Positions 20,411 through 56,852 of a stretch of 64,000 nucleotides of DNA are shown here, one piece after another. Origin of the DNA: Candidatus Argoarchaeum ethanivorans (GTDB lineage: Archaea > Halobacteriota > Methanosarcinia > Methanosarcinales > EX4572-44); assembly GCA_905067555.1 (NCBI GenBank), contig CAJHIS010000001.1, forward strand, positions 8,611-72,610, in the 5' to 3' direction. Under the pieces are notes generated by a model. That model was not told the origin of the DNA. It ran no database searches and worked only from the letters and a program-made list of their open reading frames with translations. A program made the position numbers and the translations under genes. Position 1 is the stretch's first letter. Every line of letters begins with the position of its first letter.

Positions 20411-21886
20411 CTACATATTATTTAAATTTTTGCATATTTCATTCTTAACAGAATCAAAACTGAAATTATACAACTTTTCAGAATCAGATTTACTAATGGC
20501 TATTCCTTTGTGTACGAAATCATTCCTTTTTTTCTTGTAACGGTTTAAAAATTCATATTTTTTGTTATCAATTTTTCCTAAAAAACTTAAAAATTCAATT
20601 TTAGTCGCGATTGACCAATTATCATATTTGTCAGCCTTTTTATTTTGTCCATACATCTCATTTTTTTCAGAGATAACTTCGGCAAATAATCGTGGTATTA
20701 AATTCTCTACAATGAACCAACTAAAAAGAAATGATTGAGAAAATTCTAAACTTTTTAAATGTGTATAACTGTCAAGTAAGAAAAGTACTAAATCGTTCAA
20801 TTTTTTATCACTATATATAATTTCGGCAGTTTTTATAATTTCATTCATTTTATCAAGAGGAATCACAGTCTTTCTATATCCTTTAAAATTCATTGGTTTA
20901 AATCTTTGATTAGCTGAATTCCAACTGCATCCGCCTATTGAATCACCCAAAACTGGAATGTTTTGTTTTATTTTAGAACTGATAAGTCCAGATTCTCGCA
21001 CTGATAACGATTCAATTCCTAAGATAAGAGAAATTCCGAAAATAGTGTTTATTATTTTAATCGCACTCTCTTCATCTTCTATTTGAATCACTACAAATCC
21101 ATATTTATCATAAAAACCCTTTCGGCCATCAAATGTGAATTCAAATTCATATTTTGGATATTCAACAATATTCGGGCCATACAACTTTTCTTTAAAACTA
21201 ATCTCAATATCGTTTCCTATAAAAACGCCTGGATAATAATAGGCACCAATTACACCCACTAATGATCTATCATGTGTTATTGATTGAGAACTTGGCTTTT
21301 GAATCACGGTTTCATTTCGAATCAAAGCTCTCCGCTTTGCATATTGAAATGATTCAATCATCTTTTGTTCGAAATAACCTAATTCTGCAACATTTCCTTT
21401 GAAATTAGCAACCCAACCATTATTAAAAAATGCGCTACCATATCTCAATCCATTTCTAAAATTTGTTAAAGGATAATTTCTCATAATATCTAAGAAATTT
21501 GAGAAATGCAGAACAAAATAATCTGAATATTTATTCATTTGATTCTCATCATGGTACCAACGAAAATCGTCCTCTTGATTGGTGATTTCTTTTTCCCATC
21601 TCGGTTCGTCCATAATTTTTATTACTTCTTCCTCAAGTTCAAAACCTTTAAAAGGACCATTAATTTTAATTTCTTTATCTGGTCTATCAGAATCATGTAG
21701 AAAAACTAAAAGCTGACACTCATGGGGTTCTGAAACCCAGAAAATTTCAATTTGGCATGGAGCTGAATAGTTACTGTAATCCAAAATTTGTTTTTGTTCT
21801 AATTCATTCAGTTTTTCATATTCTTTCCTAAAAGTATCAATAAGATTCTGACCCCATTTTTCGAGTTCTTGTACTTTTTTATGCAT
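20411..21886 (-). CDS. HEPN-domain protein (Abi-like), large unknown N-terminal domain
   Basis: 491 aa and very AT-rich. The C-terminal helical region ends with KKRNDFVHKG, an Rx4H HEPN RNase motif. Confidence 0.55.
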   Translation of the reverse strand: MHKKVQELEKWGQNLIDTFRKEYEKLNELEQKQILDYSNYSAPCQIEIFWVSEPHECQLLVFLHDSDRPDKEIKINGPFKGFELEEEVIKIMDEPRWEKEITNQEDDFRWYHDENQMNKYSDYFVLHFSNFLDIMRNYPLTNFRNGLRYGSAFFNNGWVANFKGNVAELGYFEQKMIESFQYAKRRALIRNETVIQKPSSQSITHDRSLVGVIGAYYYPGVFIGNDIEISFKEKLYGPNIVEYPKYEFEFTFDGRKGFYDKYGFVVIQIEDEESAIKIINTIFGISLILGIESLSVRESGLISSKIKQNIPVLGDSIGGCSWNSANQRFKPMNFKGYRKTVIPLDKMNEIIKTAEIIYSDKKLNDLVLFLLDSYTHLKSLEFSQSFLFSWFIVENLIPRLFAEVISEKNEMYGQNKKADKYDNWSIATKIEFLSFLGKIDNKKYEFLNRYKKKRNDFVHKGIAISKSDSEKLYNFSFDSVKNEICKNLNNM

Positions 21887-47314: not shown

Positions 47315-48121
47315 TTGGAGTTAAGTATGTCAGAAATTGGAAAAAATATTAGACTTGAGAGAATAATGGATCGAGAGAGCAGAAATATGGTAATCATCCC
47401 GATGGACCACGGTATTTCCATAGGTCCTGTTGCTGGTATTGTGAACCTGCCAGAGGCTGTTAACAAGGCAGCAGAAGGCGGCGCCAATGCTGTTCTCATG
47501 CAGAAAGGAATGGCAAAACATGGACATCGTGGGTATGGGCAGGACATAGGACTTATTATCCACATGAGTGCCTCAACAAGTCGTGCACCAGATCCTAATG
47601 ACAAAGTACAGGTGTGCACTGTCGAAGAAGCAATAAAACTCGGAGCAGATGCTGTTAGCGTTCATATTAACATTGGCTCTGAAACAGAATCCAAACAGCT
47701 TCGGAAACTCGGGATGGTCGCAGAAAGCTGTGATGCATGGGGAATGCCTTTAATTGCCATGATGTACCCTCGCGGGAAAAACGTCACAAACCAGAACGAT
47801 TCCGAACTCGTAGCACATGTTGCACGCGCCGGGGCAGAGCTTGGGGCAGACATTATCAAAACAAACTACACAGGCGACCCTGACAGCTTTAAAGACGTTG
47901 TTGCAGGATGCCCGGTTCCAGTGGTAATGGCTGGAGGACCAAAGGCAAACACTGACAGAGAGTTTCTTGAAATGGTGGCAGGTGCAATGAAAGGTGGTGC
48001 ACGCGGTGTCGCCATCGGGAGAAACGTGTTCCAGCATAAAAACCCAGCCGCAATGACCCGTGCTCTTACAAAAATAGTTCACAAAAGCACCACGGTAGAC
48101 AAAGCAATGGAGGAACTTTAA
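47315..48121 (+). CDS. class I aldolase family, ADH synthase (AroA')-like
   Basis: 268 aa DhnA/FbaB-type aldolase ([14 protein letters not shown]), directly followed by dehydroquinate synthase II. Confidence 0.75.
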
Positions 48122-48293
48122 GTGAAATACATCTGGATAAATTCAAACCCGTATCGCTTTGCGATGCGGAGATGCAAAGCAATGGAGGAACTTCATTGTG
48201 AAACACCTTTGGATAAATTCAAACCCGTATCGCTTTGCGATGCGGAAATACAAAGCAATGGAGGAACTTCATTGTGAAACACCTTTGGATAAA
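48100..48293. repeat. three copies of the aroA'/aroB' junction (about 42 bp) separated by two identical 33-bp hairpin inserts
   Basis: Junction copies at 48100-48141, 48175-48217 and 48251-48293. The inserts at 48142-48174 and 48218-48250 carry CCGTATCGC-TTT-GCGATGCGG. Confidence 0.9.
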
Positions 48294-49401
48294 AGCAGAC
48301 AGTAATGTCTGGGACAACGACAAAGAAAGGATCACAACCGCTCTTGAATCGGGATTTGACTTCACTCTTGTGAGCGAGGACGATATTGGAAAAGTACAAG
48401 CACTCGGCAACATCAAAATAGCAGCCCACACCACGAGCGAATACAGCAACGCCGATGTCCTTGTAATCGGGAAAAACAGCGAAGGAGACGGAACTATTCC
48501 ACTCAGCGAAAGCTCAGAGGATATAAAAACCGCAGAAAAACTTACAAAAAGCGGAAAAACAGTCGCAGGATACGTAGTAATACACAACAAGGAATATGAA
48601 GCGTTCGCATCCAAAATAGCACAACACTGTAAGTACCTGATCGTCATGGGAACCGACTGGAAAGTCATACCACTTGAAAATCTTATAGCAGATCTCCAGT
48701 CACTGGATGTTGAAATAATCGCAGGCATAACCGATGCAGCAGAAACAAAACTCGCGCTTGAAACACTGGAACACGGCTCAGACGGCGTACTTGTTGACAC
48801 TGATGACGCAAGCGAGATAAAAAGAATAGCAGACGCACGCGAAAAAAGCGAAATGAAACCAGTGGAACTTACAGCAGCAACCATCACAAAAGTAAAACCG
48901 GTAAGCATGGGAGACCGTGTCTGCATAGACACATGCAGCCTGATGAAACTCGGCGAAGGCATGCTCATCGGAAGCCAGTCCAACGGCCTGTTCCTCGTGC
49001 ACGCAGAAAGTGAAGAGAGCCCTTATGTTGCAGCACGACCGTTTCGGGTGAACGCTGGAGCAGTACACGCCTACATAAAAATCGGAGAAAAAACCAGATA
49101 CCTCTCGGAAATGGAAGCAGGAGATGACGTACTGATCGTAAACAAGGACGGCAAACAGAAAAAAGCAGTTGTGGGACGAGTCAAAATCGAAAAACGACCA
49201 CTGATGTTAATCGAAGCAACAGTAAGCAACACCACAATCAAAACCCTCCTGCAAAACGCAGAAACCATCAAACTCGTGAAACCAGATGGCACACCATTAT
49301 CAGTAGCAGACATCAAAGAAGGAGATGAAGTACTGGCACACTTTGAAGACACTGCACGACACTTTGGGATGCAGATAGAAGAGACTATTATAGAGAAATA
49401 G
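48274..49401 (+). CDS. 3-dehydroquinate synthase II (archaeal AroB')
   Basis: About 375 aa. The start is proposed at GTG 48274 (VKHLWIKAD...) because in junction copy 1 the same GTG directly follows the aroA' TAA. The track ATG at 48235 lies inside the inserted hairpin. Confidence 0.75.
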
Positions 49402-49595
49402 GAGCTTGTTAGCTTTCGGAATATTGGGGGAAAATAAGAAATCCTCCAGACTTAATCTTCGATAATGTGAAGTCAGAGGATTTATATGCGAAGTGAGTTT
49501 GGATATAACGCCAATTTGAGTTGATATACGAACTTGAGTTTGGATAGATCTGAGTTGAGTAGAATGGCGGTTTGGACATTCATGAGGCGAATAAC

Positions 49596-50423
49596 ATGAG
49601 TAAGACAGAACATAAATTATATATCGGCAATGCTAAGCAAGAACTGCTTAATATAACGAATAATAGCATTCAATTAATTGTCACATCTCCACCTTATTGG
49701 AATGCACGAAATTATGAACATTCACAACAAATTGGCTTTAACGATACTTATGAAGAATATCTTAAGGCACTGGGACAGATATTTGAAGAGTGCGTAAGAG
49801 TACTTTTACCTGACGGAAAAATTGCATTGAATATCGGAAACATTTATAACAAAGATAATATCGAAAAAAGAACATATACGGTGAATCTAGTACTAGATTT
49901 ATGGAAAATTTTAAGTGAGTTTAAAGTGTTGAGATATATGGGTACGATTTTCTGGAAAAAAACCACTTCACGTAATGGAGCAGTTCTATTTGGAAGTTAT
50001 CCATATCCATCTAATTTTATGATTTCTACAGCATTGGAACCTATTCATGTCTTCAGGAAGATAGGTAAAAGAAAAATCCCCAAAGAGGTAAAAGAAAAAT
50101 CACGTATTTCAAAGGCAGAATTCAGAGAACTTAGAGAGCCAATTTGGTACTTAAATGGAACTAGTAAAAAGGCGCATCCAGCAGTATTCCCTAATGAGTT
50201 GCCTCATAGGCTGATTAAAATGTATTCTTTTTATGGTGATATTGTGTTGGATCCCTTTTGTGGCATCGGAACTGCAAATGTGGAGGCTCTTAGATTAGGT
50301 AGAGATTCTATAGGAATAGATGTAAGAGAAGATTATGTTGAAACAACAGTATCAAATTTAAAGAGAATAAAGGAACCTGCAGCCATATCGATATTTAATC
50401 ACGGAGAGGATATTTATGAGTAA
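49596..50423 (+). CDS. DNA methyltransferase, beta-class N4-cytosine/N6-adenine (SPPY motif)
   Basis: Motif IV VTSPPYW lies upstream of motif I LDPFCGIGT, which is the beta permutation. The ATG at 49596 is preferred over the track TTG at 49572. Confidence 0.85.
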   Translation: MSKTEHKLYIGNAKQELLNITNNSIQLIVTSPPYWNARNYEHSQQIGFNDTYEEYLKALGQIFEECVRVLLPDGKIALNIGNIYNKDNIEKRTYTVNLVLDLWKILSEFKVLRYMGTIFWKKTTSRNGAVLFGSYPYPSNFMISTALEPIHVFRKIGKRKIPKEVKEKSRISKAEFRELREPIWYLNGTSKKAHPAVFPNELPHRLIKMYSFYGDIVLDPFCGIGTANVEALRLGRDSIGIDVREDYVETTVSNLKRIKEPAAISIFNHGEDIYE

Positions 50424-51003
50424 CGATGAAATACCTAAAATAAAAACCATGGTAAGGCGATATAAATCTTCACTCCCAAAATTAACTATATTTATATTGG
50501 GTCCCGGTGAACATAACATCGATCCATATGCAAAGAAATGTTATAGCAAACGGTGTCAGATTAAAAATGAACTCGCACGCGACCATGATACCTTTTTTCT
50601 CGAAGAGATATATAACGAAGCAAGAAATGATGGAGTAGATGTTACCAATACACTTGACTTTGAAGATATTCTAATAAAAAAAGAGGCCGATACCGTCATT
50701 ATGATTTTTGTTCTAAATGCTACGGGACTTGAAGCAGAGCTAGTAGCATTTTCACGATGTCCAGAATTAGCAGAAAAAATGTGGGTATTTTACGATAGCA
50801 CTTACTACGAATTTGGTAATAAAAATTTTTGGCATGTTAATAGTGCTTTAGACTCAATAGAGGGACGTAATGGTAGAATTAAACCATTTACGGAAAGTGA
50901 GATTGATTCATGTTCATTATTAACAAGAGTTAAGAACATGATAGAGCAAAAGAGGAGGGCTCTTTCTATATTACCATACAAGAAGTATCAGGGGGTTGAG
51001 TAA
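50416..51003 (+). CDS. nucleoside 2-deoxyribosyltransferase-like (NDT/TIR-assemblage) protein
   Basis: 195 aa. IFILGPG (compare iYlAGP) and ADTVIMIFVLNATGLEAELVAF (compare aD.vva.......G...ElG.A) are present. It overlaps the MTase stop by 8 nt. Confidence 0.5.
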   Translation: MSNDEIPKIKTMVRRYKSSLPKLTIFILGPGEHNIDPYAKKCYSKRCQIKNELARDHDTFFLEEIYNEARNDGVDVTNTLDFEDILIKKEADTVIMIFVLNATGLEAELVAFSRCPELAEKMWVFYDSTYYEFGNKNFWHVNSALDSIEGRNGRIKPFTESEIDSCSLLTRVKNMIEQKRRALSILPYKKYQGVE

Positions 51004-53766
51004 ATGGTAGCTACAAGCAGTATAAAAAACATTTGGAAACTTCTGGAAAGATTTAAGGATGAATCAACCCTATTGATGAATGAGGATAATTTAGTAGTTC
51101 TTATTTATATTACCAAGCATGAGGGAATTGGGGTAGATGATTTAATAAAAAAATTAGATAAGCACATCATCCATGTAAAAGATAACGTAGTATTTTTGAA
51201 ATCTAACAGATTCATTATAGGAAAAAATAGTTTGATCTATGCTACCGAGAAGGGGGAAGAGATGGTTGACATAATTGAATATTCACAATATAAAATTGAC
51301 GATGTTCCAAAAGATATAATTTTGGGATATACTTTAGAAAAACCACCGTTAGGCATTGGTTCTACATCTTTTACCTTTAAAGCAGAAAGAAAGAAGATAA
51401 AAAATAAGGTCATAAAAATATTCAAACCTGGAATATTTGACCACATAGATTTTGACAAGAAAATAGAGGCATTACAACCGCTATCAAATCTCACCAATTT
51501 AGTTTTACCTGATGATTACGGGGATTTTGAATGGAATGATAGGGAATTTAGATATATTGTGATGAAATATATTAAAGGAAGAACTTTGAATGAGTTTCTT
51601 AATGAGAAAGTAGATATAGACTTAAGAAAGTTTATAGATAATTTTTTAAAAGAAGTAGGAAAAACGTTAGAAAAAGTAGAGAAATCAGGTTTAAATCATG
51701 GTGACCTTCACTCAAATAACATTTTAGTAGTTGAAGACGAGTTAGAAAAAGGCAAGAAGATATGCCACTTTCACATAATAGATTTCATGGGCATCAAATC
51801 AAACGAGGAATTCCGTGAATTTGAGCTTTCAGATTTTGAATATTTCAAACAACATCTCCTAAAAATAGTAAAAGTATATGCTTCTACTCCATCGGGAAAA
51901 CCTGATTTGAAAAAGTTGGGGGATAGATTTTACTACATAGTACAAAATCTGCAAAACGGAGAATATCATTCATTTAAGGATTTATTTGACGCACTTTCTG
52001 CGAAACTCCCTCCTCCTTCAAAATTAGGTAATATAAAGGAGCCACCGTTTAGTTTTATCAGATTTGAACAATACGACATTAATGATCCTCTGTGGCTTAG
52101 AAGGTTTGAAGTTGAGAATGCTTTGTATGCACCTATCAAACGATTTGACAATGTAATATGCTCAGGTCCAAGAGGATGTGGTAAGACTATTTACTTGAGG
52201 TCTTTAACTTTCGTTCCAAGATTAGTAAAATCAATCCAGAATGGGCCAGATAAATATCCTGAGGTGAAAGATAAGGTTGCATTTTTTGATAACATCTTCG
52301 GCATTTATTTTGCTTGCAGACAGGGAGAGTTTAAGTATTTCTCTGAAAAATACTTTAGATTTACACCTAAAACACAACTACTTATCAAACACATAATTGC
52401 GCTAAGAATCATTAAGAGGACGCTAAATTTAATAAACGATGGTTACACGGAGAGGGTACTATCGAGCGAGCCAAAAATAGAGTCAATCTTGAAATTTTTG
52501 ACTCAATATCTAAAGAGGGATCTTATGATGACTCCTGAAGCAAAAGAAAGACCATTTGAACAGTTGGATGGCATATTAAGCATTGAAGAAAACTATTGTG
52601 AAAGTATATTAGGTGAAGATGAGAATTATCCAGATATTAGCAAGATGTTAAATGAGCATTTATTAATTGATTTTTTCAGTGGTTTAAAAAATTCTGTTTC
52701 TGAGCTATCTAACATAAAATTTTATGTTATTTTTGATGATGTAAGCGATCCTCAGGTTCCTTTTGAATGCCAAAAAATTATCAATTCGTTTATGTCATGC
52801 CTTAACGAAATATATTGCTGTAAATTTTCAACAGAAAAATTTGCCTACACCTATGAAGATATGTCTGGTAAAACTTTGCAACCTACCAATGATTATACAT
52901 ATATGGACCTATCCTTCATGGGAGCGCCTGGGGATAGATACACTGATAAAATCTACAAACAATATTTAGGGAAGATAATTAATAAGCGCCTTGAAATAGC
53001 TAATCATAAACAGAATATCAATGGACTTTTAGGAAATTCGCCAGATTCTGCACAGAAATTGATAACTTTGCTCTCTGAATGCGCCAAGGGAAATCGAGAT
53101 GTATATAATAAAATTAAATTTGCTGGATGGGACTTGGTTATTCAGTTGTCTTCGAGGAGCGTGAGAGATGCTATTGCTATATGTGATTCAATCTTTAGAG
53201 AATGCGAAACTAAAAAAAATCTATCTGATGAAATAAAAGAAGGAAAAACAAAAATGCCAATAGAGATTCAGGATAGAGCCATTAGAAAACATTCTCTAGA
53301 AGAGTACAGGAGCTTACTGAATATTACATATCATGGTAGAGAAATCTTTAATATCGTTAGAAATTTTGGCGAAATATCTCGCAAGTATTTGGAGAAAGAG
53401 ATAACTAACGAGGAAGGCAGGAAATACGAAATGATTACAATAGAAAGGATCGATGCTAAAGAAATATCAGAAGATGCAAAAAAAATATTTAGAACATTAA
53501 TCCGTTATTCTGTTTTTTTAGATAGAGGTCTTTGTTTTTCCAGAGAGGAAATAGGATTGGTTCAAAAAATTACACTGCATAAAAAGTTTACACCGGCCCT
53601 GATGACAACTTACCGTGAAAGAGAGCATCTTCGATTATCAAAGGATAGATTAGAAAAATTCATTTTACATCCCGATGAATTTAGGCAGGAACTTATAACA
53701 GGGAAAAAAATAGATAAGCATCAATTAGAAATCTTTGATTTTTTAGAAGGTGATAGAAATGAGTAG
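51004..53766 (+). CDS. wHTH + atypical (RIO/Bud32-like) protein kinase + P-loop NTPase fusion protein
   Basis: 920 aa. Kinase motifs are GIGSTSFTF, VIKIFK, HGDLHSNNILV and IIDFMG. Walker A is GPRGCGKT and Walker B is FYVIFDDVSD. The ATG directly abuts the previous TAA. Confidence 0.65.
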   Translation: MVATSSIKNIWKLLERFKDESTLLMNEDNLVVLIYITKHEGIGVDDLIKKLDKHIIHVKDNVVFLKSNRFIIGKNSLIYATEKGEEMVDIIEYSQYKIDDVPKDIILGYTLEKPPLGIGSTSFTFKAERKKIKNKVIKIFKPGIFDHIDFDKKIEALQPLSNLTNLVLPDDYGDFEWNDREFRYIVMKYIKGRTLNEFLNEKVDIDLRKFIDNFLKEVGKTLEKVEKSGLNHGDLHSNNILVVEDELEKGKKICHFHIIDFMGIKSNEEFREFELSDFEYFKQHLLKIVKVYASTPSGKPDLKKLGDRFYYIVQNLQNGEYHSFKDLFDALSAKLPPPSKLGNIKEPPFSFIRFEQYDINDPLWLRRFEVENALYAPIKRFDNVICSGPRGCGKTIYLRSLTFVPRLVKSIQNGPDKYPEVKDKVAFFDNIFGIYFACRQGEFKYFSEKYFRFTPKTQLLIKHIIALRIIKRTLNLINDGYTERVLSSEPKIESILKFLTQYLKRDLMMTPEAKERPFEQLDGILSIEENYCESILGEDENYPDISKMLNEHLLIDFFSGLKNSVSELSNIKFYVIFDDVSDPQVPFECQKIINSFMSCLNEIYCCKFSTEKFAYTYEDMSGKTLQPTNDYTYMDLSFMGAPGDRYTDKIYKQYLGKIINKRLEIANHKQNINGLLGNSPDSAQKLITLLSECAKGNRDVYNKIKFAGWDLVIQLSSRSVRDAIAICDSIFRECETKKNLSDEIKEGKTKMPIEIQDRAIRKHSLEEYRSLLNITYHGREIFNIVRNFGEISRKYLEKEITNEEGRKYEMITIERIDAKEISEDAKKIFRTLIRYSVFLDRGLCFSREEIGLVQKITLHKKFTPALMTTYREREHLRLSKDRLEKFILHPDEFRQELITGKKIDKHQLEIFDFLEGDRNE

Positions 53767-54817
53767 TATAGACGAATTCAAACTAGAGTTTATAAAAGAA
53801 AGAAGTGACTCGCTTTATATTTGTGCAGCCGGATTCGAAGATAGATCTCGTGCTATCGTTGAAAGATTGAAAGACAGAAGGGAGAACTTTTTTAAATATT
53901 CTCTTATTCTTGAATATTCTGACACTAAGCATAAAGAATACAATAAACCCAATTTAGAATTTATCCAATCCACTTTACCCCAGATATCATGCCGTTTACT
54001 AGAAAACGCAATAGTTGATATAGACCATATTTATCAAATCAAGGCTAACATAATAGAAGCATTTAAAAGAATACCAATAGAAGATATTGGAACAGTTTTC
54101 ATAGATATATCGGGAATGGCCAATTCCCTGATATTACTAAGTGTACATCAAGCCAAAAAAAGGTTTTTGGGCAAGGAGATAGTAATATTATATGCGGAAG
54201 CGGACATTTACTACCCCTCTATAGAAAAAAGAGCCGAAATTAAAAGACTAATGAAAAGCGATGAGGAAGAGGATATATTAAAATTAGGTGATGAATTGGG
54301 CGCTTCTGGTACAAGAGAGGTGATAATTTTACCGGGTTTTAAAGGATATTTCACTGAGAATAAACCAATATGTCTCATATTCCTTGTTGGATATGAACCT
54401 TCAAGAGCTGCAGGGTTATTAGACACTTACCGTCCAAACATGGTAGTAGTGTGCTATGGAGGTTCTCCTCATGAAAAATTTGAATGGAGAAGAGATTTTT
54501 CAAAAGAACTGCATGTAGACTTGTTTAATAAATTTAATCATGTGGAGAGGGGTATCTCTACGTTTTATATATCCGAGATAGTTACTGAGTTGGATAAAAT
54601 ATACAAAAGCATTGAGAATAGTGGACACGAATTATATGAGTATTATAATGTAGCTATAACGCCTCAATGCAGTAAATTACAAACTATTGCGGCTTACTTA
54701 TTTTCCCAGATACATCCAGACGTGCAAATTGTCTTTTGCTTTCCAGGTAAATTTAATCCAGAAAGATATTCCAAAGGCGTAGGGAAAATATGGGTTTACA
54801 AATTACAAAATGTTTGA
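53759..54817 (+). CDS. tandem Rossmann-like protein, Csa3/CARF-like motifs in both halves
   Basis: Half 1 has LYICAAGFEDRSRAIVERL ... FIDISGMANSLILLSV. Half 2 has CLIFLVGYEPSRAAGLL ... VAITPQCSKLQTIAAYL. The ATG at 53759 is preceded by GGTGAT and overlaps the upstream TAG. The track uses GTG 53750. Confidence 0.45.
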   Translation: MSSIDEFKLEFIKERSDSLYICAAGFEDRSRAIVERLKDRRENFFKYSLILEYSDTKHKEYNKPNLEFIQSTLPQISCRLLENAIVDIDHIYQIKANIIEAFKRIPIEDIGTVFIDISGMANSLILLSVHQAKKRFLGKEIVILYAEADIYYPSIEKRAEIKRLMKSDEEEDILKLGDELGASGTREVIILPGFKGYFTENKPICLIFLVGYEPSRAAGLLDTYRPNMVVVCYGGSPHEKFEWRRDFSKELHVDLFNKFNHVERGISTFYISEIVTELDKIYKSIENSGHELYEYYNVAITPQCSKLQTIAAYLFSQIHPDVQIVFCFPGKFNPERYSKGVGKIWVYKLQNV

Positions 54818-54860
54818 CAAAACTGCCACTTCGCCTAACACAGCATATACAGTGCGGGCT

Positions 54861-54920
54861 TCATGCGTGTTCGGTTAAGAGACAAATCGTGATAAACCAG
54901 GGGAACACAATAAACTATTG
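54861..54920 (+). repeat. 60-bp direct repeat, copy A
   Basis: TCATGCGTGTTCGGTTAAGAGACAAATCGTGATAA...GGGGAACACAATAAACT recurs at 56586-56645. Confidence 0.85.
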
Positions 54921-55178
54921 GGCGAAATTGAGATTGGGTTCCATCCATGACTGGTTGTGATTTTGATGTGCATCAGGATTTGCCAGAGCCTTCAAGTCGT
55001 CAAAAACGTGAGCAATAAATCACCAAAACTTCTTAACCGAACACCAATGGTGCGGGCTTCGCCCCTGCCCTCCGGAACATTGCCCCTTTCGGTCGCAACG
55101 TCGTATGTGCTGGAAACGTTATCTGATATTCGCCTTGGTAGATAACATCTTTAAGAGCAATACCGGGAGGTGTTTGAA

Positions 55179-55337
55179 ATGGCAATACGAACCTTTACCG
55201 CGGTTCTCCACAAGGAAGAAGATCTATACGTAGCAGAATGCCCTGAAGTTGGGATGGTTAGCCAGGGATACACTATCGAGGAAGCCATCGCCAATCTGAA
55301 AGAAGCGACAGAACTCTATCCGGTTTTGATGCCATAG
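55179..55337 (+). CDS. small HicB/UPF0150-like antitoxin
   Basis: 52 aa: MAIRTFTAVLHKEEDLYVAECPEVGMVSQGYTIEEAIANLKEATELY.... It is below the ORF-track length cut-off. Confidence 0.6.
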   Translation: MAIRTFTAVLHKEEDLYVAECPEVGMVSQGYTIEEAIANLKEATELYPVLMP

Positions 55338-55340
55338 TGT

Positions 55341-55560
55341 ATGCCTAAGTTGCGCAGGATATCAGGAAAAGAAGCCGTGCGTGCACTGACGCTTGGGCTT
55401 ATAGAGAGTGCGGCAACGCGGCAGCCACGTGGTGCTCAAGAAGCAAACGTCAGATGGCGCTCGGATGCGTGGTTCTTCTACGTGAGCTGGCGATAGGCAC
55501 GTTAAGGGGCATTCTACGGTAAGTCAGGATAACACCCCTGACGAGTTTAGGGAGAACCTC
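55341..55560 (+). pseudogene. decayed hicA toxin gene
   Basis: MPKLRRISGKEAVRAL is in one frame, QRGSHVVLKKQTSDG in a second, and VVLLRELAIGTLRGILR*VRITPDEFRENL in a third with an internal TAA. That makes at least two frameshifts plus a nonsense codon. Confidence 0.7.
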
Positions 55561-55665
55561 TATCGAACGACTGCCAAACGTCAGATAACACGGCACCCGC
55601 GGCTAACGCCCAAATGCTGACGCGTGTAAAAGATTTTAATGTGATGTGGTGGTTGAGGTTGCTGT

Positions 55666-55926
55666 ATGGATAAGGCTCGTATACTTGAAGAGTTGAAAAG
55701 GAACTCAAAGAAGATTCGTTTTAAGAGGCTATGCACGGTCGCTGAGGTTTTTGGGTTTAGATTTAAAGGCGGAAGGGGCAGCCATCGTATTTATGTGCGA
55801 GATGGAATAGATGAAATGTTAAATTTTCAAAATGTAAGTGGTAAGGTAAAACCTTATCAAGTAAAACAACTTATAAAGATTATTGAAAAGTATAACCTCT
55901 TAAAGGAAGATGAAAGAGATGTATAA
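55666..55926 (+). CDS. hicA: HicA-family mRNA interferase toxin
   Basis: 86 aa with a GGRGSHRIY motif, overlapping the downstream antitoxin gene. Confidence 0.8.
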   Translation: MDKARILEELKRNSKKIRFKRLCTVAEVFGFRFKGGRGSHRIYVRDGIDEMLNFQNVSGKVKPYQVKQLIKIIEKYNLLKEDERDV

Positions 55927-56179
55927 GTACGCAATAGAGATATTCCACAGCGAAGAAGACGAGGGGTCTATCGCGGTGGTACCGGAATTACCGGGATGCA
56001 CAGCGTTCGGAGAAAACGAAGAAAAGGCATTGGAAGAGATAAAAATAGCTATGGAACTGTGGATAGAGACTGCGAAAAAAGAGGGAAGAAATATACCACA
56101 ACCTCATGGAAAAGAGATTCTAAAGCTAATCTATGAGAATGCCTTTCGCACCACACACCCTGGTGGGGCTGGCGCATAA
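55910..56179 (+). CDS. hicB: HicB-family antitoxin
   Basis: 89 aa with EDEGSIAVVPELPGCTAFGENEEKALEEIKIAMELWIE. Confidence 0.8.
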   Translation: MKEMYKYAIEIFHSEEDEGSIAVVPELPGCTAFGENEEKALEEIKIAMELWIETAKKEGRNIPQPHGKEILKLIYENAFRTTHPGGAGA

Positions 56180-56585
56180 CAGAGCGTATCTGGCTTCGGC
56201 TATCACCTTCACCAAAATTGGCCTTACTGGCAACTTTGTATACTTGCAGAACGTTATATGCAATCGTGGACAAAATATTAATAACTATGAGTATATTAAA
56301 AAAGGAATTGACATCAAGATGCCGCTATTTGATGTGAAGGAGGTTGTACCCATAAATTCCGGCGTGTGTTCGATGGATAAGATGCTAACCGATGTTGATT
56401 ACGTGAGTTTTTTGGTCGAAATTTTGTTAAAGTTCGGTTAGAAACAGCCCGGAATTTTGTTCAGAAGTTGAAGAACCATCTTGAAAGGTGGACAGATGGA
56501 GAGAAATGAACGGAGTTCGGAACTCTCGCCCGCCTTAGAAAATATGGCTTCTCTGATAACTCGCGTTGAACAATCTGATAAATCA

Positions 56586-56645
56586 TCATGCGTGTTTGGT
56601 TAAGAGACAAATCATGATAAGTTAGGGGAACACAATAAACTGTTA
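56586..56645 (+). repeat. 60-bp direct repeat, copy B
   Basis: Paralogue of 54861-54920, 45 nt from the 3' end of tRNA-Glu. Confidence 0.85.
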
Positions 56646-56689
56646 GATACGCAATATCTGGAATTATGGAAATGCAAAAATATTTTAAG

Positions 56690-56762
56690 TGCTCCGATCG
56701 GGATTTGAACCCGAGTCCTCGGCTCGAAAGGCCGAAATGATTGGCCGCTACACTATCGGAGC
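56690..56762 (-). tRNA. tRNA-Glu (anticodon UUC)
   Basis: Acceptor GCUCCGA/UCGGAGC, anticodon arm UCGGC-CUUUCGA-GCCGA and T-loop UUCAAAU. Confidence 0.9.
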
Positions 56763-56779
56763 GCTGAAGCATTTTCCAG

Positions 56780-56852
56780 TAGTCCCGGGCGGATTCGAAC
56801 CGCCGTCGCCGGCTCCAAAGGCCGGCAGGATTGACCACTACCCTACAGGACT
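56780..56852 (-). tRNA. tRNA-Gln (anticodon UUG)
   Basis: Acceptor AGUCCUG/CGGGACU with A1:U72, anticodon arm CCGGC-CUUUGGA-GCCGG and T-loop UUCGAAU. Confidence 0.9.

Follow-up and report, generated by a model that had tools for sequence, protein, structure and literature searches.

A tandem-CARF protein of the CARF6 family, coupled to a kinase-ATPase gene in a mobile four-gene cassette of Candidatus Argoarchaeum ethanivorans

Introduction

In type III CRISPR immunity, cyclic oligoadenylates (cOA) are classically read by CARF domains, and two CARF-like domains occur within one chain in Can1 and in the SAVED domains of CBASS and of type III effectors. Here we study a protein built of two CARF-like halves that is encoded outside a CRISPR setting, in a stretch of 64,000 nucleotides from Candidatus Argoarchaeum ethanivorans (assembly GCA_905067555.1, contig CAJHIS010000001.1, positions 8,611 to 72,610 of the forward strand). 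We refer to this whole stretch as the window and give coordinates as positions within it; coordinates that follow the label of a related locus belong to that locus. The tandem-CARF gene (53759-54817) is the last of four tightly packed genes on the same strand (49572-54817), which encode a DNA methylase, an enzyme resembling nucleoside 2-deoxyribosyltransferases (NDT-like), a protein that joins a kinase to an ATPase (the kinase-ATPase), and the tandem-CARF protein itself.

Several described systems come close to this arrangement. A family of fusion proteins carries, in a single chain, a Zn-ribbon, a Ser-Thr-Tyr kinase, an AAA+ module with an arginine in its P-loop, a CARF domain and a winged helix-turn-helix (wHTH), and kinase-mediated signalling has been suggested for it (Makarova et al. 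2014, PMC4012209). Pgl/BREX type 2 systems comprise the methylase PglX, the kinase PglW with its ORC-Cdc6-like module, the ORC/Cdc6 ATPase BrxC, and the phosphatase PglZ (PMC12839542). Among retrons, the NDT-like effector of Ec86 depletes NAD+ (PMC13276650). The main interest of the locus described here is its conserved cassette of methylase, NDT-like enzyme, kinase-ATPase and tandem CARF, the tandem-CARF family itself having already been catalogued computationally as CARF6. We take this name, as used by PADLOC, to go back to the CARF classification published by Makarova et al. (NAR 2020). To our knowledge no member of the CARF6 family has been tested experimentally, and our literature searches found no experimental study of any member.

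An earlier note on this DNA proposed that the gene encodes a stand-alone protein made of two Csa3/CARF-like Rossmann halves, which might serve as a receptor, a sponge or a ring nuclease for a nucleotide signal. We find that the two-halved CARF architecture holds. We propose, with a probability of roughly 0.6, that the protein is a pseudo-dimer, in which two diverged CARF domains are covalently joined, and that it acts as a small-molecule-sensing regulatory subunit of the kinase-ATPase, within a mobile cassette directed most likely against viruses or plasmids.

Results

Fold and family of the tandem-CARF protein

The mechanical open reading frame (ORF) at this place runs from a GTG at 53750 to 54817 on the plus strand and encodes 355 amino acids. 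An ATG at 53759 yields a protein of 352 amino acids with the N-terminus MSSIDEF; since this start agrees with the N-termini of homologues, 53759-54817 is likely the true gene. From this start the gene shares 8 nt with the end of the upstream 920-amino-acid ORF, whose TAG stop lies at 53764-53766. Residue numbers below follow the 355-amino-acid numbering, that is, they count from the GTG at 53750. The gene and the parts of it discussed in this paper are as follows.

53759..54817, plus strand: tandem-CARF ('CARF6') gene (ORF, PADLOC PDLC01917, AlphaFold2 model)
53807..54334, plus strand: N-terminal CARF-like half, residues 20-195 (AlphaFold2 secondary structure, Foldseek, Csa3_N in relatives)
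53825..53845, plus strand: motif AAGFEDR past strand 1 of the N-half (conservation in relatives, AlphaFold2)
54104..54124, plus strand: motif DISGMAN past strand 4 of the N-half, fitting the [DN]x[ST] part of the CARF signature (PMC4012209)
54191..54217, plus strand: motif YAEADIYYP past strand 5 of the N-half, family-specific and without counterpart in the general CARF definition
54359..54805, plus strand: C-terminal CARF-like half, residues 204-352 (HFX_2341_N and CARF_Card1 in relatives, hhalign to the N-half)
54386..54406, plus strand: motif VGYEPSR past strand 1 of the C-half, in register with GFEDR (hhalign)
54659..54682, plus strand: motif TPQCSKLQ past strand 4 of the C-half (conservation in relatives)

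AlphaFold2, given an alignment of 42 sequences, models the protein with a predicted local distance difference test score (pLDDT) of 91.6 and a predicted template modelling score (pTM) of 0.92. Each half of the model consists of six strands alternating with helices, and so presents the six-stranded Rossmann-like core of a CARF domain. When the full model is compared with the PDB by Foldseek, the matches with a probability near 1 are TtCsm6, Sso2081 (Crn1), Sis0455, Csa3, Cam1, Can2 and Cad1, and forms of Csa3, Can2 and Csm6 bound to cyclic tetra-adenylate (cA4) are among the matches. The N-half modelled alone (pLDDT 83.9) matches Sis0455, Cam1, Csa3, Sso2081, Cdn1, Can2 and Card1 with probabilities of 0.96-1.0 and template modelling (TM) scores of 0.4-0.59; folds of the HUP class are mixed among these matches. 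One strand, residues 188-193 (54311-54328), is confident in the full model and disordered (pLDDT 35-57) in the model of the N-half alone. To judge from the model, this strand probably packs against the C-half.

Sequence evidence comes from the PADLOC model 'CARF6--CARF_CARF_CARF' (PDLC01917), which matches residues 13-354 of the protein over positions 12-304 of its 308, at E=1.3e-27. The CARF6 clade is marked by a full-length match to the tandem-CARF model together with an adjacent or fused kinase-AAA+ partner, and the window has both the match and an adjacent partner. The protein is a member of the computationally catalogued CARF6 family, and nothing separates it from that family. It has no match of its own in Pfam or NCBIfam. 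Among its relatives, however, the Pfam model Csa3_N matches the N-half of P0201 (9.9e-6) and P0277 (3.1e-5), in both cases just under the gathering score, and HFX_2341_N matches the C-half (about residues 205-330) in nine of 42, with a best E-value of 2.9e-7; two of these nine lie above the gathering score, the top score being 31.4 bits against a gathering score of 30. CARF_Card1 also matches the C-half of one relative, P0067, weakly (0.0016). In P0277, Csa3_N and HFX_2341_N match one and the same region of the N-half, which suggests from sequence that the two Pfam models are related. Neither the whole protein nor a profile of either half retrieved anything meaningful from the PDB by sequence search, and when hhalign set each half against a single Csa3 sequence, the GF(N/E)E motif fell in register but the alignment was not significant (E=0.02-0.03).

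The proposal of two Csa3/CARF-like Rossmann halves is thus borne out by the PADLOC match, by the CARF structures that Foldseek finds and by the Csa3_N and HFX_2341_N matches in relatives. The same Csa3_N matches to the N-half of P0201 and P0277 bear out the more particular claim that the first pair of motifs is Csa3-like.

Internal duplication

The earlier note had also described a pair of motifs that recurs in both halves. These four motifs are at residues 26, 119, 212 and 302, and their places in the two halves of the AlphaFold model correspond: GFEDR and GYEPSR stand just past strand 1, DISGMAN and TPQCSKLQ just past strand 4. In shallow alignments (effective number of sequences, Neff, about 3), the N-half and the C-half show no significant similarity (hhalign E=0.17-0.23). 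We therefore turn to the wider family. A search of 1.84 billion representative proteins yields a CARF6-like family of 1558 clusters (50% identity) at E up to 1e-3, or 878 at E up to 1e-10, nearly all of whose members are about 350 amino acids long and matched end to end. For the deep profiles of each half we used 182 of the members found.

In the 182-sequence alignment (Neff 7.4), the two halves align in register over 126 columns at E=1.6e-5, and at E=3.8e-6 when hhalign is run with -M 50. The alignment places AAGFE-DR on LVGYEPSR and IDISGMAN on VAITPQCSK; that is, all four motifs are present and in register, as had been claimed. Control comparisons with reversed profiles, with 40 column-shuffled profiles and with unrelated Rossmann-type profiles (NDT and methyltransferase) gave E-values of 0.036 or more and scores of 19 or less. 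On the strength of these profile comparisons we conclude that the duplication is genuine, as is the register of its motif pairs. Divergence between the halves is great, with about 12% identity and differing conserved motifs.

Conservation in the ligand loops

By definition, CARF domains are conserved at the end of strand 1 and just past strand 4, where the ligand pocket lies (PMC4012209). In a set of 129 diverse relatives, 18-55% identical to the window protein, five residues are invariant (G28, E30, D119, P156 and K309) and eight more are found in at least 90% (F29, R32, S121, Y148, A151, Y154, S308 and Q311). Among these, G28, F29, E30, R32, D119, S121, S308, K309 and Q311 all sit in the loops past strands 1 and 4. 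Conservation is thus concentrated at the two places that the CARF definition singles out.

The CARF signature proper is [DN]x[ST]xxx[RK], or a conserved basic residue past strand 4, and some CARF families lack the basic residue (PMC4012209). In the CARF6 protein this signature is split between the halves: the N-half has D119-I-S121 and no conserved basic residue, and the C-half has the invariant K309 (within G/C-S-K) and no D/N-x-S/T. By its position in the sequence, K309 is the conserved basic residue expected past strand 4 of a CARF domain. Strands 5 and 6 of a CARF domain form a beta-hairpin (PMC4012209). In the AlphaFold2 model of the C-half, the corresponding strands (326-332 and 347-351) have a 14-residue loop between them, and in that of the N-half (143-149 and 188-193) they are parted by a conserved two-helix insert that begins with YxEAxxYxP.

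Other readings of the motifs were tried and dropped. The segment CAAGFEDR resembles the CX6R motif of PTP-like phosphatases, a reading that we reject since C25 is not conserved in the wider family. Likewise, a Toprim or receiver-domain reading of the E and DxS motifs is rejected because no such structures are found among the Foldseek matches.

The other cassette genes

The three genes upstream of the tandem-CARF gene are as follows.

49572..50423, plus strand: DNA methyltransferase of the N6/N4 family, 283 amino acids (Pfam N6_N4_Mtase 3.7e-42; PADLOC MTase_II 5e-62)
50416..51003, plus strand: NDT-like enzyme, 195 amino acids (PADLOC NDT_II-A 2.5e-7; NCBIfam retron St85 effector 2.6e-7)
51004..53766, plus strand: kinase-ATPase partner, 920 amino acids (Pfam Pkinase, ORC-CDC6-like 3e-28; PknA matches in the PDB)

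The first hundred or so residues of the kinase-ATPase look, from their sequence, like a wHTH. They are followed by a Hanks-type Ser/Thr kinase (about residues 105-340), with conserved K138, HGDLHSNN and DFMG, and by an ORC/Cdc6-like AAA+ module (residues 374-681), with Walker A GPRGCGKT, which holds an arginine inside the P-loop, and Walker B FYVIFDD. Across 28 orthologues, K138, HGDxHxxN, DFxG, Walker A GxRGxGKT and Walker B are each kept in at least 90%. The same proportion of NDT-like orthologues conserves G104 and E108 of the NATGLEAEL segment, and in the methylase motif IV (TSPPYWN) stands ahead of motif I (DPFCGIGT). With their catalytic motifs intact, the kinase, the ATPase, the methylase and the NDT-like enzyme all look active. 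The annotations listed above also uphold the claim that an NDT enzyme belongs to the same operon.

A second PADLOC model, 'CARF6--CARF_STK_AAA' (1187 positions), matches the 920-amino-acid protein at 1.4e-14. This model is matched colinearly by the two neighbours, over positions 337-762 by the 920-amino-acid protein and over positions 934-1185 by the tandem CARF. Since both proteins match one model in order, fused versions must exist. The description of the tandem CARF as stand-alone and without an effector is therefore correct in one respect only: its gene is separate, but it is coupled to that of the kinase-ATPase, and in relatives the protein is fused to this partner or to other outputs.

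Relatives and their gene neighbourhoods

We compared the window with a near clade of 28 loci from genomes and metagenomes (43-78% identity), eight of which are cut by contig ends. The order methylase, NDT, kinase-ATPase, CARF6 is kept in all 20 near-clade loci with enough upstream DNA. The kinase-ATPase lies directly upstream of CARF6 in 27 of the 28, and in the last the contig ends inside the gene; it holds the same place in 11 distant loci, intact in nine and split in two. When all ORFs of the 29 loci (the 28 and the window) are clustered, no fifth conserved gene appears, and hence no conserved cyclase; the remaining clusters are of short ORFs, and those examples that we checked overlap the cassette genes. 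The hosts of the cassette include Ca. Argoarchaeum, Promethearchaeota, Patescibacteria, WOR-3 and Ignavibacteriae. The cassette is horizontally mobile between archaea and bacteria.

Among distant relatives (21-30% identity), the loci L029, L031, L035 and L040 have the methylase, the kinase-ATPase and CARF6 without an NDT-like gene. The methylases themselves fall into two circularly permuted classes, with motif IV first in the window clade (TSPPYWN) and motif I first in the distant loci (TSPPYMN). Methylases of the distant class, with motif I before motif IV, are found at the following places.

L029 4399-5553, L031 4288-5505, and others: distant-class methylases

Other distant loci carry a different accessory gene. 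A thymidylate-kinase-like (Tmk-like) gene is present at L032 (8025-9056) and L033 (8159-9046), and in L034 (378-2222) it is fused to the tandem CARF. A ThyX gene is present at L036 (8133-9056), L038 (7148-7843, minus strand) and L039 (521-1456). Between L036 and L039 the ThyX proteins share 62% identity. The L036 locus, which lies on a Bradyrhizobium plasmid, has one gene for the kinase and another for the ATPase. Wherever an accessory gene stands beside the methylase, the kinase-ATPase and CARF6, it always encodes a (deoxy)nucleotide enzyme, be it NDT-like, Tmk-like or ThyX. This pattern hints at a link to the metabolism of thymidylate or of deoxynucleoside monophosphates.

In addition to the Tmk-like domain, tandem CARFs of relatives are fused to HisKA+HATPase_c and to Metallophos (a calcineurin-like phosphoesterase). 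The flanks of related cassettes hold genes for Mrr/ResIII, GmrSD, AbiE, DUF1156/DUF499, HEPN-NTase, NACHT and integrases, which are typical of defence islands. No cas gene was found in the flanks of the distant loci inspected, and no CARF6 relative was found in the viral contigs of IMG/VR, in GenBank phages or among the structures of BFVD.

Two loci remain to be described. In L030 (4107-8008), a Transposase_mut insertion splits the kinase-ATPase gene into a kinase ORF and an AAA+ ORF, and this cassette is probably inactivated. In L037, a 19 kb plasmid of Spirosoma rhododendri, a tandem-CARF relative of 322 amino acids (1471-2439) is adjoined on the opposite strand by a PAS histidine kinase and a response regulator, and the examined part of the record contains no methylase or kinase-ATPase.

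Genomic setting in the window

The cassette lies in a low-GC island (49572-56600) with a GC content of 0.33, compared with about 0.42 on both sides. The island extends between an archaeal dehydroquinate-synthase-like gene (48235-49401) and the genes for tRNA-Glu and tRNA-Gln (56689-56852). Such an island is consistent with horizontal acquisition. The closest database protein to the tandem CARF, at 99% identity, is from Candidatus Argoarchaeum ethanivorans.

The absence of Cas10 and CD-NTase genes from the window, as asserted in the earlier note, is in keeping with our results: neither occurs among the 10 largest other ORFs, in a scan of the window that was not exhaustive. Among these ORFs, nine encode housekeeping proteins, Topo VI-B, MetRS and GlnA among them, and the tenth is without a Pfam match. 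No CRISPR-like array was found in the window with TRF, and the only Rfam RNAs in it are tRNAs.

Just 3' of the cassette lie a HicB-like remnant and a frameshifted HicA-like remnant (55180-55560 and 55666-56179), and an apparently intact HicA/HicB-like pair comes next. Elsewhere, an ORF of 491 amino acids (20411-21886, minus strand) with no Pfam match at E up to 1e-5 occupies a second low-GC stretch (20-22 kb, GC 0.33). Finally, a 76-nt unit is repeated 2.6 times with 92% identity at 48099-48293, where it covers the end of one ORF (47315-48121) and the start of another (48235-49401).

Discussion

Proposed function

The cassette looks like an uncharacterised, CRISPR-independent anti-virus system, in which the tandem CARF probably acts as a sensor. 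We assign it to the input side because in relatives it is fused to outputs of varied kinds, namely a histidine kinase, Metallophos and a Tmk-like domain. In the mechanism that we envisage, the methylase would mark host DNA as self, and the wHTH/kinase/AAA+ protein would be an ATP-driven switch whose output would be phosphorylation. The tandem CARF would bind an asymmetric nucleotide-like ligand and thereby gate either the switch or the accessory enzyme. By analogy, the logic of such a switch resembles that of PglW, PglX and BrxC in BREX type 2 (PMC12839542). The NDT-like enzyme may then be an exchangeable, nucleotide-directed effector or modulator, comparable with the effector of retron Ec86 (PMC13276650). 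As a general maker of the ligand the NDT-like enzyme is rejected: it cannot be an obligatory source of the signal, since distant loci with methylase, kinase-ATPase and CARF6 do without it.

Several observations weigh against this proposal and are reflected in the probability that we attach to it. The E-values of the Foldseek matches are modest (1e-4 to 1e-2 overall, and 1e-4 to 1e-3 for the full model), and generic Rossmann folds, such as pantothenate synthetase, universal stress protein (USP), Dot1L and glycosyltransferases, are interleaved with the CARF matches. In neither half is the [DN]x[ST]xxx[RK] signature complete. The invariant acidic residues E30 and D119 are unusual for the pocket of a phosphate-rich ligand, and might instead indicate catalysis or the binding of a metal. 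No signal synthase can be recognised in the cassette. Lastly, the evidence for a role in defence, which we consider most likely, is evidence from context.

As to the ligand, the earlier note pointed out that CARF domains normally dimerise to bind cyclic oligoadenylates; for such a ligand here our results offer no support. These molecules are unlikely ligands of the tandem CARF because no cyclase travels with the cassette, being conserved in none of the 29 related loci, because the hosts are very diverse, and because the halves are strongly asymmetric. Since the accessory genes are NDT-like, Tmk-like or ThyX, we offer, tentatively and with considerable doubt, a more specific reading: that the protein is a cyclase-independent sensor whose asymmetric pocket would read an infection metabolite, perhaps a (modified) pyrimidine deoxynucleotide, in place of a dedicated second messenger, and which would switch the kinase/AAA+ module of a methylation-linked defence.

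Alternative explanations

One alternative role requires no ligand at all. The tandem CARF might be a degenerate CARF whose function is that of a scaffold, binding no small molecule and serving as an adaptor, an oligomerisation partner or a phosphorylation substrate of the kinase-ATPase. The tight coupling to the kinase gene speaks for such a scaffold, as do the incomplete signature in each half, the lack of a signal synthase in the cassette, and the conserved S121, Y148, Y154, T271 and S308, which could be phospho-acceptors. We nonetheless consider it unlikely: the strongest conservation falls on the canonical ligand loops and not on one surface patch, and fusion to a histidine kinase, a metallophosphoesterase or a Tmk-like domain is the behaviour of a sensor input rather than of a dedicated kinase adaptor. 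These output-domain fusions likewise argue against the tandem CARF being itself an enzyme, for example a metal-dependent or ring-nuclease-like phosphodiesterase or phosphatase that acts on a nucleotide signal, on nucleic-acid ends or on the phosphoproteins made by the kinase. In favour of an enzyme, the invariant E30, D119 and K309, together with S121 and S308 (at least 90%), resemble a catalytic constellation; catalytic activity is known for some CARF domains, and Foldseek finds ring nucleases among its matches; and kinase/phosphatase pairs recur in defence, as in Pgl/BREX type 2 (PMC12839542). However, Pfam, NCBIfam and the PDB sequence search give no match to any phosphatase or nuclease family, and the cysteine (C25) of the CxxxxxxR-like stretch varies in the wider family, so that we regard an enzymatic role as quite improbable.

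The signal might also come from elsewhere in the genome, the protein being an ancillary module that works in trans, as a receptor or a ring nuclease for cOA made by a type III CRISPR system or by a CBASS cyclase. The fold does match CARF proteins that bind cOA, among them Csa3, Can2 and Csm6 in their cA4-bound forms and two ring nucleases, Sso2081 and Sis0455, and CARF proteins in general are strongly linked to genomes with CRISPR-Cas (PMC4012209). Against this, no CRISPR array was found in the window, and neither Cas10 nor CD-NTase is encoded by any of its 10 largest other ORFs. The conservation of only the four cassette genes across the 29 loci, the lack of cas genes in the flanks of the distant loci inspected, and the spread of the cassette over very different hosts, Patescibacteria included, likewise speak against it. 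Moreover, halves that are about 12% identical and that carry different motifs fit poorly with a symmetric ligand such as cA4 or cyclic hexa-adenylate (cA6). We give this explanation little credence. Even less can be said for a sponge that sequesters an immune signalling nucleotide, an idea to which we attach almost no weight. A nucleotide-binding fold that stands alone, with no enzymatic domain attached, would suit a sponge, but all signal sponges known to us are encoded by viruses, and relatives of the tandem CARF are absent from IMG/VR contigs, GenBank phages and BFVD structures; the gene is, furthermore, locked into a cellular operon with the kinase-ATPase and the methylase. Of the three roles suggested in the earlier note, then, the receptor is favoured, and the gene context disfavours the sponge and the ring nuclease.

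Significance

The locus presents the CARF fold outside CRISPR, where it is duplicated in one chain and partnered by a DNA methylase and a Ser/Thr kinase-AAA+ protein, but by no cyclase. If the pyrimidine-deoxynucleotide reading were true, CARF signalling would gain a new class of ligand and, in protein phosphorylation, a new output. Knowledge of the ligand and the output would bear on how CARF domains sense outside CRISPR, on how kinase-based defence is triggered and on how self-marking by methylation is wired to signalling. Because the family is large (the 1558 clusters at 50% identity), characterising even one member would annotate thousands of proteins now labelled 'hypothetical'.

Comparison with known systems

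With SAVED proteins and Can1 the tandem CARF shares a concept, a covalent CARF pseudo-dimer able to read an asymmetric ligand. It differs from them in having no CD-NTase or Cas10 partner at related loci and no effector domain in its chain, and neither SAVED nor Can1 is recovered by Pfam (SAVED at E up to 1) or among the top 50 Foldseek matches. Ring nucleases of the Crn1 type have a similar fold, but they are single-CARF homodimers of about 180 amino acids that cleave cA4 in type III CRISPR; the window protein, being tandem and without a CRISPR context, does not belong with them.

The cassette follows the logic of Pgl/BREX type 2 in combining a methylase, a Ser/Thr kinase, an ATPase of the ORC/Cdc6 type and a wHTH. 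Yet it is much smaller, its AAA+ Walker motifs are intact, and it has a CARF component; we know of none in any BREX type. A Pfam scan of the four cassette proteins finds no PglZ, no DUF499 (the BrxC-type ATPase) and no methylase of the PglX type. The cassette is not a member of BREX type 2 / Pgl. As for the retron effectors Ec86 and St85, the 195-amino-acid protein of the window matches their NDT domain at about 2.5e-7, but only this N-terminal domain is common to them, and the window cassette has no reverse transcriptase and no multicopy single-stranded DNA (msDNA).

Csa3 (Sso1445; PDB 2wte and 6w11) is a CARF-wHTH regulator that binds cA4. The N-half motif pair resembles MGFNE and DLTMGMR of Csa3, the Foldseek probability is 0.99-1.0, and Csa3_N matches the N-half of relatives at 1e-5 to 3e-5. 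Unlike the window protein, Csa3 is a CRISPR-associated homodimer whose chain has one CARF domain and a wHTH. The fusion family described in the Introduction shares with the window a kinase, a distinctive AAA+ module (with the P-loop GPRGCGKT in the window) and a CARF domain, in the same order. In the window, by contrast, the CARF is a separate, translationally coupled gene and is duplicated in tandem, and the N-terminus of its partner is wHTH-like, with no Zn-ribbon family among the Pfam matches of that protein.

The closest counterpart is the CARF6 family itself, whose members are, like the window protein, stand-alone proteins of about 350 amino acids with no link to CRISPR. Compared with the CARF6 clade as catalogued, the clade of the window also has an NDT-like gene, and its methylase is small and has its motifs in the other order.

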